IMG/VR virus record: IMGVR_UViG_3300000059_000077
Coordinates: 1-4,324 of that record
DNA length: 4,324 bases
Source: a virus
Lineage: Duplodnaviria; Heunggongvirae; Uroviricota; Caudoviricetes
Strand: one strand, 5' to 3'
The notes under the pieces were generated by a model. That model had not been told where the DNA came from, did no database searches, and saw nothing but the letters and a program-made list of their open reading frames with translations. Made by a program: the position numbers and the translations under genes. Of the stretch, positions 241-4,193 are shown piece after piece (position 1 is the first letter of the stretch; the number at the start of each line of letters is the position of its first letter).

Positions 241-290
241 ACATAATTATACAATATTATAAAAATTAAAAAGTTCGCAAAAAAAAACTA
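241..290 (-). promoter_or_regulatory. AT-rich candidate promoter for the tRNA cluster (two TATAAT hexamers on the minus strand)
   Basis: The minus strand reads ...TTTTTATAATATTGTATAATTATG..., giving perfect TATAAT hexamers at 261-256 and 251-246, the second preceded by TG. A T9 run and TTGCGA sit upstream at 287-275. No clean 17-bp-spaced -35 was found, so this is a weak call. Confidence 0.3.
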
Positions 291-1334
291 ACTATTGTTT
301 CTTATTTCATCAAACGTTTGATTAAACCTGTCCGTTTCCAGCTCTACACCAATAGCTCTACGTTCCAGAGAGAGCGCAGCCTTTATAGTCGCCCCCGATC
401 CCATAAAAAAGTCTGCAACCAGTTCCCCCGGACGACTGCTGGCTGTAATTATCTGCCGCAACATATCTGCTGGCTTCTCACACGGATGTTTACCCGGATA
501 ATACTGCACAGGTTTGTGCGCCCAGACATCCGTATAAGGAACGGCAGCCGATACGGAAAAATAACGCCGCAGGGATTTGTACTCCTCCAGCAGGCTGGCA
601 TATTGTCGGTTCAGTTCGCTGTATGTGCTGACCAGCTGGTGGTGTGGCTTTTCCAGTTCACCGCGCTGATGTTTTTCTGCTGCAACACGCGCAAACAACG
701 CCTGCAGTTTTCTGTAATCAACCTCATTCGGCAACTGCCACTGACTGGCACCAAACCAGTGTGAAGCCATGTTTTTCTTTCCGGTGGCTTCCGCTATCTG
801 TTTTGATGTTATCCCCAGTGATACACGCGCATCACGAAAGTAAGAAATCAGCGGGGCCATGACGTGCTGTTTAAGCTTGCGCCCCTTTGCCGCATAGCCG
901 TCATTTTTGGGCTGGTATGGCCCCTGATAATGTTCTGCAAACAGAATGCGTTCTGTTGCCGGGAAATACGCCCGCAGGCTTTCCTTGTTGCATCCGTTCC
1001 AGCGTCCGGACGGCTTCGCCCAGATAATGTGGTTCAGCACATTAAAGCGCTCACGCATCATGATTTCGATATCAGATGCCAGGCGATGACCACAGAACAG
1101 GTAGAGACTTCCGGCAGGTTTCAGTACCCGCCAGAACTGCGCCAGACACTGGTCCAGCCATTTCAGGTAATCATCGTCGCCCTTCCACTGGTTATCCCAG
1201 CCCTCGGGCTTCACTTTAAAGTATGGCGGGTCTGTGACTATCAGATCGACAGAGTTTTCCGGTAAGGTCTGGATAAATTCCAGGCAATCAGCGTTGATTA
1301 ACTCACAACTGGATATTTTTACAGTATTAGCCAT
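288..1334 (-). CDS. DNA methyltransferase, beta-class amino-MTase (N6-adenine or N4-cytosine), orphan
   Basis: 348-aa ORF. Motif IV is LIVTDPPYF near the N-terminus and motif I is DFFMGSGAT near the C-terminus; this IV-before-I order defines beta-class amino-MTases (PF01555-type). No restriction endonuclease partner is visible in the window. Start ATG at 1334-1332 with only a weak SD (GAGAAG). Confidence 0.9.
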   Translation of the reverse strand: MANTVKISSCELINADCLEFIQTLPENSVDLIVTDPPYFKVKPEGWDNQWKGDDDYLKWLDQCLAQFWRVLKPAGSLYLFCGHRLASDIEIMMRERFNVLNHIIWAKPSGRWNGCNKESLRAYFPATERILFAEHYQGPYQPKNDGYAAKGRKLKQHVMAPLISYFRDARVSLGITSKQIAEATGKKNMASHWFGASQWQLPNEVDYRKLQALFARVAAEKHQRGELEKPHHQLVSTYSELNRQYASLLEEYKSLRRYFSVSAAVPYTDVWAHKPVQYYPGKHPCEKPADMLRQIITASSRPGELVADFFMGSGATIKAALSLERRAIGVELETDRFNQTFDEIRNNS

Positions 1335-2462: not shown

Positions 2463-2749
2463 AAATAACCTTCCTTTCTCCAGACTTCTTGTGTGCGAAA
2501 AACACCTTCTGCATGCATCAGGCGTAATTCTTCTTTGGTGTAATCGCTGGTTTTTACCCGCCCGTCGATTAAATCGTGGCACGAGCTACAGGCAATCGCT
2601 GCCTGCATATCGTGTGGTTTTATCGCCGTTCCACACGTTCCCGCCAGTCGGTAATGCGCCAGCACAGACGTTTCAGGATTGTGATTGCAGTATCCAGGGA
2701 TTCTGACCTGGCACATCTGGCCCCGCGCCACTTTACGTAAATTCACCAT
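2459..2749 (-). CDS. YbcO-like (DUF1364-type) Cys-rich putative nuclease/zinc-binding protein, 96 aa
   Basis: 96 aa with five cysteines (C13, C21, C39, C54, C57). Its size and position just upstream of Q match DLP12 ybcO. Its start overlaps the upstream stop (TAATG) and its stop overlaps the Q start (ATGA). Confidence 0.65.
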   Translation of the reverse strand: MVNLRKVARGQMCQVRIPGYCNHNPETSVLAHYRLAGTCGTAIKPHDMQAAIACSSCHDLIDGRVKTSDYTKEELRLMHAEGVFRTQEVWRKEGYL

Positions 2750-3348
2750 TACGCAAACTCCAGTAGCTGCGCGGCCACATTTTCGACTTGTTCCGGAGAG
2801 GAAAATTTACGGAACAGGATCCAGTTCCACAGCACATTCAGCACAGATTTATAAACCTGCTGAAACTCGGTTTCGTCCATATTCGCAAACGCGATGGATT
2901 TCGCTCGACGCCCGCGGCTACCGTCCGGATAAATATGCTCGGTGTAAAATCCGGCCTGAATGGTTACCCACTCGCGGAAAGCCTCAAACGACTTTAGCAA
3001 TGCCGTATCCCGGGTTCTGCGTGTCGCAACTGTATTCAGATATTGCTCTGCGGCTTCGCTCAGAGCTGGCGTATGTTCCCGGCCTACTGATTCACACAGG
3101 TAATCAACGAATCCTGAAACCAGTTTTCGTTCGCGAGGCGTGATCGCCCCTCCGACCGGAGTCCAGTAATCGAATCCGAGTTGCAGAAGTTTGAAAAAAC
3201 GCTTATGGAATGCGTAGTTACGAACGCGCTTAAAATCAGCGTGTATCCACTCGCCTATTTTGATTTGATGCAGAAAATCACAACTCTCCGGCGTCGCCGG
3301 GAGAAGTAAACCAGAAGAAGTTTGTTTGACCAGTTGTATATGCGCCAT
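2749..3348 (-). CDS. Phage nin-region protein of unknown function (199 aa; possibly DUF1367-like)
   Basis: Long ORF with a GGAG SD 6 nt upstream of the ATG at 3348. The track's TTG start at 3360 is less likely. The stop overlaps the next gene's start. The family assignment is from memory of a roughly 200-aa phage family and is not verified. Confidence 0.7.
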   Translation of the reverse strand: MAHIQLVKQTSSGLLLPATPESCDFLHQIKIGEWIHADFKRVRNYAFHKRFFKLLQLGFDYWTPVGGAITPRERKLVSGFVDYLCESVGREHTPALSEAAEQYLNTVATRRTRDTALLKSFEAFREWVTIQAGFYTEHIYPDGSRGRRAKSIAFANMDETEFQQVYKSVLNVLWNWILFRKFSSPEQVENVAAQLLEFA

Positions 3349-3407
3349 TGTTATCTCCAATGGCGCTGTAGGTTGCCAGTTGTTCAGGCTGGCTTACGAA
3401 TTATAAC

Positions 3408-3730: not shown

Positions 3731-3760
3731 ATTAAAATAAAAAACCCGCCGAAGCGGGTT
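3731..3760 (-). terminator. Strong intrinsic terminator ending the hok transcript
   Basis: Minus-strand RNA AACCCGC-UUCG-GCGGGUU forms a 7-bp stem with a UUCG tetraloop, followed by UUUUAUUUUAAU. It sits 68 nt downstream of the hok stop codon. Confidence 0.8.
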
Positions 3761-3828
3761 AAGTGCGGGTGCGTTGAGGATGCCTGACACATCAGAGGTG
3801 GCGAGGGATTTCTCCCCCGCCTGGTCTC

Positions 3829-3984
3829 TTACTCCTCAGGTTCGTAAGCTGTGAAGACAGCGACCTCCGTCTGGCCGGTTCGGATTCGTACCTCGCAGAG
3901 GTCTTTCCTCGTTACCAGTGCCGTCACTATGACGGTTAAACAGATGACGATCAGGGCAATTAACATCGCCTTTTGCTGCTTCAT
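3829..3984 (-). CDS. hokD: Hok/Gef family type I toxin (51 aa), HokD/RelF-like
   Basis: Sequence MKQQKAMLIALIVICLTVIVTALVTRKDLCEVRIRTGQTEVAVFTAYEPEE. It has one N-terminal transmembrane helix and the LCEVR motif typical of Hok/Gef, and matches my recollection of K-12 HokD (RelF). An AAGGAGAAG SD lies 6 nt upstream. Confidence 0.9.
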   Translation of the reverse strand: MKQQKAMLIALIVICLTVIVTALVTRKDLCEVRIRTGQTEVAVFTAYEPEE

Positions 3985-4103
3985 AGCCTGCTTCTCCTTG
4001 CCTTTCGGCACGTAAGAGGCTAACCTACATGTGTCTAGCATGAAATTGGCCTCAGATTAATGTTAAGCGTCTTGCAGGACGCGTAATGTTAACTGGGGCT
4101 TCT

Positions 4104-4140
4104 CTATCTGCCTTTTGGTGTTCATGCCTGAGGCAGATAG
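4104..4140. repeat. Perfect 9-bp inverted repeat (CTATCTGCC / GGCAGATAG) with a 19-nt spacer, upstream of hok
   Basis: Read directly: 4104-4112 CTATCTGCC and 4132-4140 GGCAGATAG. The spacer contains the palindromic GCCTGAGGC. Confidence 0.6.
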
Positions 4141-4193
4141 CCTCAAGCACCCGCAGCAATTCTACTTAACTCTCCTTTTCCCGCAAACCGTTT

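Follow-up and report, generated by a model that had tools for sequence, protein, structure and literature searches.

The stretch of DNA analysed here (the window) is one entire 4,324-bp JGI/IMG metagenomic contig, held as IMG/VR record IMGVR_UViG_3300000059_000077, and all genes that we count as real lie on its minus strand. In transcription order these are a hok/sok toxin-antitoxin locus, a short open reading frame (ORF), a DUF1367 gene, ybcO, a Q-like late antiterminator gene, a second short ORF (the small ORF), a DNA methyltransferase (MTase) gene and two tRNA genes (Table). The subject of this report is the MTase, its relation to the non-specific adenine methyltransferase M.EcoGII, and the small gene and RNA elements that precede it. 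An earlier reading of the DNA (the original prediction) had placed an MTase ORF at 288-1334. The ORF stands, while its minus orientation, the small ORF and the second terminator-like hairpin were missing from that account.

Table. Features of the window (nt, nucleotides; aa, amino acids; AdoMet, S-adenosylmethionine)
Feature	Position (nt)	Strand	Remarks
tRNA-Gly(UCC), 5' part	1-42	minus	contig end cuts gene; identical to first 42 nt of the tRNA-Gly of locus L006
tRNA-Thr(UGU)	46-121	minus	downstream of MTase; identical to L006 copy
MTase	288-1334	minus	
Motif I DFFMGSGAT, AdoMet-binding FxGxG	387-413	minus	aa 308-316; FMGSG = aa 310-314
Target-recognition domain (TRD)	624-857	minus	aa 160-237, 78 residues; limits from PMC11551740
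Motif IV DPPY, catalytic	1221-1232	minus	aa 35-38; invariant in homologue alignment A1
Conserved spacer, small ORF to MTase	1335-1484	minus	150 nt
RNA hairpin 1, ~20 bp	1418-1464	minus	AUGGGCGGCUGGUGGGUGUUAGCGGCACCUGCCAGCCAUCUGCUCAU; -30 kcal/mol
Second, weaker terminator-like hairpin and U-run	1471-1498	minus	overlaps small-ORF stop; 6-bp stem then TTTTTTATTT
Small ORF, 65 aa plus stop	1485-1682	minus	PHROG 331, E=6.5e-37
Module leader	1686-1815	minus	
tR'-like intrinsic terminator	~1806-1835	minus	hairpin and U-run, GAGCCCGC-UUUUU-GCGGGUUUUUUUU; between Q and small ORF
Candidate short pR'-to-tR' transcript, lambda 6S / StxS analogue	1808-1881	minus	weak isrK-like Rfam match
Q-like late antiterminator gene, DUF1133 type, 184 aa	1908-2462	minus	DUF1133 Pfam E=1e-104; Phage_antitermQ 30.9 bits
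ybcO	2459-2749	minus	
DUF1367 gene	2749-3360	minus	
57-aa ORF		minus	PHROG 340; after hok/sok in transcription order
hok	3829-4041	minus	Hok Pfam E=3e-23
sok RNA	3979-4152	minus	Rfam 110.7 bits
hok/sok type I toxin-antitoxin	3829-4152	minus	complete; upstream end of contig

The MTase ORF is intact, encoding 348 aa plus stop between an ATG at 1334 and a stop codon at 288-290, and its product matches the Pfam family N6_N4_Mtase (PF01555) with E=5e-42 and 144.8 bits (cut-off 26.7), aa 29-339 aligning with profile positions 1-218 of 221. The catalytic motif IV sits within TDPPYF (aa 34-39, nt 1235-1218), and since it is N-terminal to motif I with the TRD between them, the order is that of the beta class. 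By profile match and motif order the protein is a beta-class amino-DNA methyltransferase, as the original prediction had proposed from DPPY preceding DFFMGSGAT. In the alignment of homologues the catalytic and AdoMet-motif residues and every family-invariant residue are conserved in the window MTase, with no substitution in the catalytic motifs. Residue 315, which is Ala in the window MTase and Ser in M.EcoGII, is shared with the E. coli copy of locus L002, which also reads GSGAT. We compared the two dimer-interface segments reported as conserved in the M.EcoGII family (aa 97-110 and 116-140): the latter is identical to M.EcoGII and the former is identical except for S98N, an Asn also present in the resurrected ancestor Anc291. 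The solved beta-class MTases (8URK/9C3U 'Methyltransferase', M.RsrI, CcrM, M.MboIIA and DpnA) align with the catalytic and AdoMet-binding halves in two separate stretches (E=1e-23 to 1e-14) and skip the central TRD and linker, such that none of these structures covers ~aa 116-280. In AlphaFold models the TRD of M.EcoGII is a four-helix bundle with a helix-turn-helix (PMC11551740), and the window TRD very likely adopts the same fold, given its 85% identity to that domain.

Compared with the natural M.EcoGII-type protein encoded at locus L325 (349 aa, IMG/VR), the window MTase is identical at 299 of 346 positions (86%) without gaps. The L325 copy served as our M.EcoGII reference, the published sequence (GenBank EGT69837.1) having been at hand only as a machine-read supplement of PMC11551740; the two are 98% identical, and most of the mismatches resemble slips of optical character recognition. 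Identity of the window MTase is 95-96% to copies in E. coli chromosomal prophages, 92% to L24 of phage phiP27, 88% to Anc291, 85% to the copy of phage 1720a-02 and 71% to SUPREM (Anc284), and for the TRD taken separately it is ~85% to M.EcoGII and 83% to the 1720a-02 copy. M.EcoGII, from E. coli O104:H4 C227-11, and its paralogue M.EcoGI share with the window MTase the succession of DPPY, central TRD and FxGxG, as well as a prophage-borne, orphan setting, and at L325, too, the gene is preceded by the 65-aa ORF and the spacer and followed by tRNAs. The differences comprise 47 substitutions (12 of them in the TRD), GSGAT in place of GSGST, a C-terminal tail ending in EIRNNS rather than EVQDLIV, a length of 348 as opposed to 349 aa and, upstream, a Q gene of the DUF1133 type. 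On the strength of these alignments the window MTase is a full-length orthologue of M.EcoGII, and the original prediction, which had named M.EcoGII only as an enzyme of the same class, was closer to the mark than it claimed.

M.EcoGII methylates adenine in any sequence context (PMC5778455, PMC12707154). Anc291 and SUPREM, both synthetic reconstructions, were active and non-site-specific by experiment, and all ancestral reconstructions tested stayed non-site-specific (PMC11551740). The closest site-specific relative of M.EcoGII is M.PflMI (CCANNNNNTGG), a member of the same beta-class Type II family with ~27% identity, a figure that refers to M.EcoGII and not to the window MTase (PMC11551740). 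Because the window MTase is ~86% identical to M.EcoGII while the nearest site-specific relative stands at ~27%, we strongly infer that it methylates N6 of adenine non-specifically, and the original prediction was too cautious in holding that the sequence does not reveal specificity. Alternatively, the TRD could have diverged from that of M.EcoGII to recognise a defined motif, which would make the protein a site-specific orphan MTase. Small changes in the TRD can alter specificity in other MTases, the window TRD carries its 12 substitutions within 78 residues, and the cluster of proteins at 90% identity to which it belongs (3,716 members) bears the NCBI name 'site-specific DNA-methyltransferase'. 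However, that name is a generic family label without experimental basis and runs counter to what experiments have shown for the M.EcoGII family, and we regard it as an annotation problem. As the TRD has remained 85% identical to that of M.EcoGII and ancestors as distant from the window MTase as 71% identity are non-site-specific, with the site-specific relative of M.EcoGII far beyond that range, we consider a defined recognition motif very unlikely.

The ratio of non-synonymous to synonymous substitution rates (dN/dS) of the MTase is 0.08-0.12 against four homologues, indicating purifying selection. Together with the intact full-length ORF and the presence of all invariant residues, this counts against a decaying or inactive remnant of a cryptic prophage, which we hold to be highly improbable. 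Such a remnant would accord with the description of M.EcoGII as residing, not expressed, on a cryptic prophage (PMC5778455) and with the window being a short metagenomic contig in which the integrity of the prophage is not visible, but the same module is found in inducible, sequenced Shiga toxin (Stx) phages, phiP27 and 1720a-02 among them. Of 71 related loci, two (L269 and L320) have an MTase match that ends early, at aa 1-138 and aa 1-310, respectively, although the sequence runs on, and these copies may be disrupted; they are the only apparently truncated ones among these loci.

The MTase gene is also mosaic. Its N-terminal domain is 99% identical to that of phiP27, whereas the C-terminal third (aa 260-348, nt 288-555 on the minus strand) is only 79% identical to phiP27 and has no synonymous difference from the E. 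coli copy of L002; this contrast, taken with the L002 match, argues for recombination inside the gene, and diversity among homologues increases toward the 3' end. Of 5,426 complete E. coli genomes, 2,592 carry homologues with ~75% nucleotide identity or more, and a single genome may have as many as six. The window MTase is thus an ordinary and very common member of a known and characterised family.

The order Q, small ORF, MTase, tRNAs and then stx or holin/endolysin genes recurs in the annotated records of two phages, phiP27 and 1720a-02, and of two E. coli chromosomes, one of which covers 92% of the window at 94% identity. The 'DNA methyltransferase' L24 of phiP27 and the 'DNA methylase' of Stx2a/2c/2d phages and of 1720a-02 have this same arrangement; in these Stx-type phages stx follows the tRNAs, while the closest relatives of the window pass straight to the lysis genes, with tRNA-Thr, tRNA-Gly and then holins and an endolysin beyond the equivalent of the window edge. 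This placement of the MTase, after a Q gene and ahead of the lysis cassette, persists in clades with just 62-80% identity. What separates Q from the small ORF varies, and the interval serves as a cargo slot: in phiP27 it is occupied by a gene for a GIY-YIG family protein (L22; L001 7562-8791), in an E. coli prophage by one for a CPBP intramembrane protease (L002 8682-9500), and in the window it is empty.

As had been proposed, no restriction partner is present in the window, in which ORF and profile scans found no nuclease-like ORF. Nor does a nuclease adjoin the MTase in the four annotated syntenic records, where its neighbours are tRNAs, stx, holins and endolysins, and neighbour clustering combined with Pfam searches of 80 viral loci revealed no recurrent nuclease near the gene but did find holins, three Q families and a TerB-like protein. 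In more than 200 related loci, likewise, the gene has no nuclease as a neighbour. The adjacent cognate restriction endonuclease that characterises a Type II restriction-modification system is therefore absent, and the MTase is an orphan. Only 287 nt of the window follow the MTase, and a nuclease just past the edge, making the protein the modification half of a restriction-modification system, would escape direct view. This seems scarcely credible: the syntenic genomes show no restriction gene at that place, the GIY-YIG family gene between Q and the module is found in phiP27 only, and for a non-specific MTase there can be no cognate partner that is sequence-specific.

The MTase has the position of a late-operon gene: Q and an intrinsic terminator precede it on the same strand, and lysis genes follow in the syntenic loci. 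This agrees with the placement as late-operon cargo in the original prediction. The product of the Q-like gene matches PHROG 753, 'anti-termination protein Q-like', with E=4e-81, and related phage records name it antitermination protein Q. The tR'-like terminator has a folding energy of -21.2 kcal/mol (z=-5.5), and none of 200 shuffled sequences was equally stable. A hairpin with U-run precedes the small ORF in 150 of 193 related loci, most commonly ~127-128 nt from its ATG and with stem sequences that vary. The second hairpin is weaker (-8.9 kcal/mol, z=-2.2), and of 200 related loci a crude detector picked it up in 165. For phages whose Q genes differ, homology sets in at ~1818, within the terminator U-run. 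On the coding strand, the stretch from 1335 to 1900 contained no promoter above the consensus threshold.

The candidate pR'-to-tR' transcript matches the Rfam family isrK below threshold (19.8 bits with a gathering score of 50, E=0.06-0.4), and this match is compatible with a short terminated transcript from the late promoter. A second sub-threshold isrK-like match lies at 3739-3820 on the minus strand, between hok and the 57-aa ORF, and both matches end in an intrinsic terminator. The papers searched on the pR' region of Stx phages do not mention the methylase module. M.EcoGII is silent in the lysogen, its constitutive expression sickens cells and ~85% of adenines are methylated in vivo (PMC5778455, PMC11551740, PMC12707154); homologues of M.EcoGI and M.EcoGII were likewise silent by single-molecule real-time sequencing in lysogens of Stx-producing E. 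coli (PMC6602927). The terminators, the lack of a promoter-like site of its own and the silence of homologues in lysogens support, without proving, that the MTase is expressed only after Q antitermination.

Combining these lines of evidence, we suggest that the window MTase is very likely a functional M.EcoGII orthologue that is carried as Q-controlled late cargo of a lambdoid prophage, hypermethylates phage DNA and protects the progeny against restriction. In this model, (i) the enzyme would be a dimeric, AdoMet-dependent N6-adenine MTase of the beta class that acts, like M.EcoGII, in essentially any sequence context, (ii) in the lysogen transcription from the late promoter would halt at the tR'-like terminator, with the weaker second terminator behind it, and the toxic enzyme would not be made, (iii) upon induction Q-modified RNA polymerase would pass both terminators, and (iv) the MTase would be made while phage DNA is being replicated, so that this DNA would be hypermethylated before packaging. 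The most likely benefit would be that progeny DNA is broadly shielded from restriction systems of Types I, II and III with adenine-containing sites.

Several points weigh against this model. The window MTase has diverged from M.EcoGII by 14%, including the 12 TRD substitutions and the Ala for Ser at aa 315, and the assays cover M.EcoGII and the ancestors, so that activity of the window allele would follow by homology. The promoter scan of the window identified no clear pR' promoter, the DUF1133 protein is called Q by homology alone and there is no obvious Shine-Dalgarno sequence at the start codon of the MTase. DNA heavily modified with N6-methyladenine (m6A) should also be a target of m6A-dependent Type IV enzymes such as Mrr, and the benefit would therefore depend on the host. 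Finally, for M.EcoGII itself protection from restriction is likewise a putative role (PMC11551740).

This last point bears on a further alternative, in which the enzyme is active and non-specific but was selected for another role, such as shutting off the host, timing late genes or packaging, excluding competing phages or evading other defence systems, by acting late in infection on host or phage DNA or on RNA. The biological function of M.EcoGII has been described as unknown (PMC11551740), the enzyme also methylates RNA and DNA:RNA hybrids (PMC5778455), and other phage orphan MTases have packaging or regulatory roles (PMC12707154). That about half of the complete E. coli genomes keep the gene, often in multiple copies, and that a winged-helix protein and a structured leader are tightly tied to it would likewise fit a more elaborate biology. 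On the other hand, activity on DNA is far above that on RNA, and residue 179 of the window MTase is Gln, as in M.EcoGII and its low-RNA-activity clade, whereas SUPREM, with its high RNA activity, has Glu (E179). Moreover, methylation late and just before packaging fits the protection of progeny, and no regulatory phenotype has been reported. We therefore regard a different selected role as rather unlikely.

Protection of progeny by a late modification has a parallel in Mom of phage Mu and other late phage modification functions, which are silent in lysogens, toxic if expressed artificially, made late and broadly protective (PMC12707154). In protein and chemistry Mom is unrelated to the window MTase. 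It is also controlled by Com, Dam and OxyR and not by Q antitermination.

The MTase is accompanied by a gene and an RNA element of its own. Directly upstream of the MTase, 74 of 74 and 73 of 74 close loci have a homologue of the small ORF, and such a homologue also adjoins many MTases with just 62-68% identity; conversely, the MTase is the next gene in all 71 small-ORF loci with sufficient downstream sequence. NCBI names the small-ORF product 'TrmB family transcriptional regulator', and sub-threshold matches to TrmB and DprA_WH were obtained for 12 and 11, respectively, of 15 family members, suggesting a putative winged-helix protein. A profile search against PDB sequences returned nothing significant, and AlphaFold run without an alignment gave a mean pLDDT (predicted local distance difference test) of 52.6, too low to support a fold search. 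Third codon positions are four times as diverse as first and second positions, and this excess indicates that the small ORF is under purifying selection. It is absent from two divergent subgroups of M.EcoGII-family loci and, because cloned M.EcoGII is in addition active alone, we regard its product as an accessory factor, not as a subunit that the enzyme requires.

In the spacer that separates the small ORF from the MTase, nucleotide diversity is 0.054, compared with 0.228 at third codon positions of the MTase (62 distinct sequences), which puts its conservation on a par with non-synonymous sites; by this measure the spacer is under purifying selection. It folds to -60.7 kcal/mol (z=-2.9) and matches no Rfam family. 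RNAalifold applied to a MAFFT alignment of the spacer recovered just 8 basal pairs of hairpin 1, because the indels are placed asymmetrically in the two arms, and the versions were then folded one by one. Of 44 distinct versions, most form a comparable stem at the same place. The hairpin has been kept by compensatory changes, with unrelated arm sequences in L100/L127, and its G.U pairs fit only an RNA of the sense strand. The hairpin has a conserved ATG at its foot, and a peptide starting there was considered and rejected, as the frame is not conserved and stops after 18 codons in L158.

Our search of the literature found no description of the small ORF linked to the MTase or of the spacer hairpin, and their association with the MTase is a new observation on a family that is itself already known. 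A natural guess is that hairpin and small ORF form a regulatory lock on the toxic enzyme. More generally, it is possible, and we put this forward only tentatively, that the PHROG 331 protein and the structured spacer RNA are an undescribed control or partner module for the toxic methylase and not passengers. One possibility is a post-transcriptional lock, for instance a gate at the level of RNase III or of translation, alongside a small factor that binds DNA or RNA and sets the timing of methylation or restrains it. More speculatively, the small protein could be a reader that shields m6A-containing DNA from m6A-dependent restriction.

Two further observations concern the flanks and the relatives of the window. 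The MTase stop codon and tRNA-Thr are separated by AT-rich sequence, which contains a promoter-like site at 189-216 on the minus strand (TTGAAA, 16 nt, TATTAT; 10 of 12 matches). It could allow independent expression of the phage tRNA genes, but the number of such sites in the window is not above chance, which weakens it. A 2.5-kb contig in a metagenome-assembled genome labelled 'Bacillus sp.' (L003, JBJEFM010000100.1) is 96% identical to the window over 840 nt and is almost certainly a mis-binned fragment of an enterobacterial prophage. It was the only contig with an exact 55-nt match in a single scan of genome contigs.

M.EcoGII is a characterised and commercially used enzyme, and its authors had already pointed out how very large its family is among E. 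coli prophages. What the present analysis offers in practice is better annotation, as the 'site-specific' label attached to this family stands against the experimental evidence for non-specific adenine methylation. The small winged-helix gene and the covarying hairpin could merit specialist attention and are the only part of the locus that might reward further work. As a module, they may explain how phages silence and then deploy a toxic enzyme, and they could offer a natural tight off-switch for tools based on M.EcoGII.

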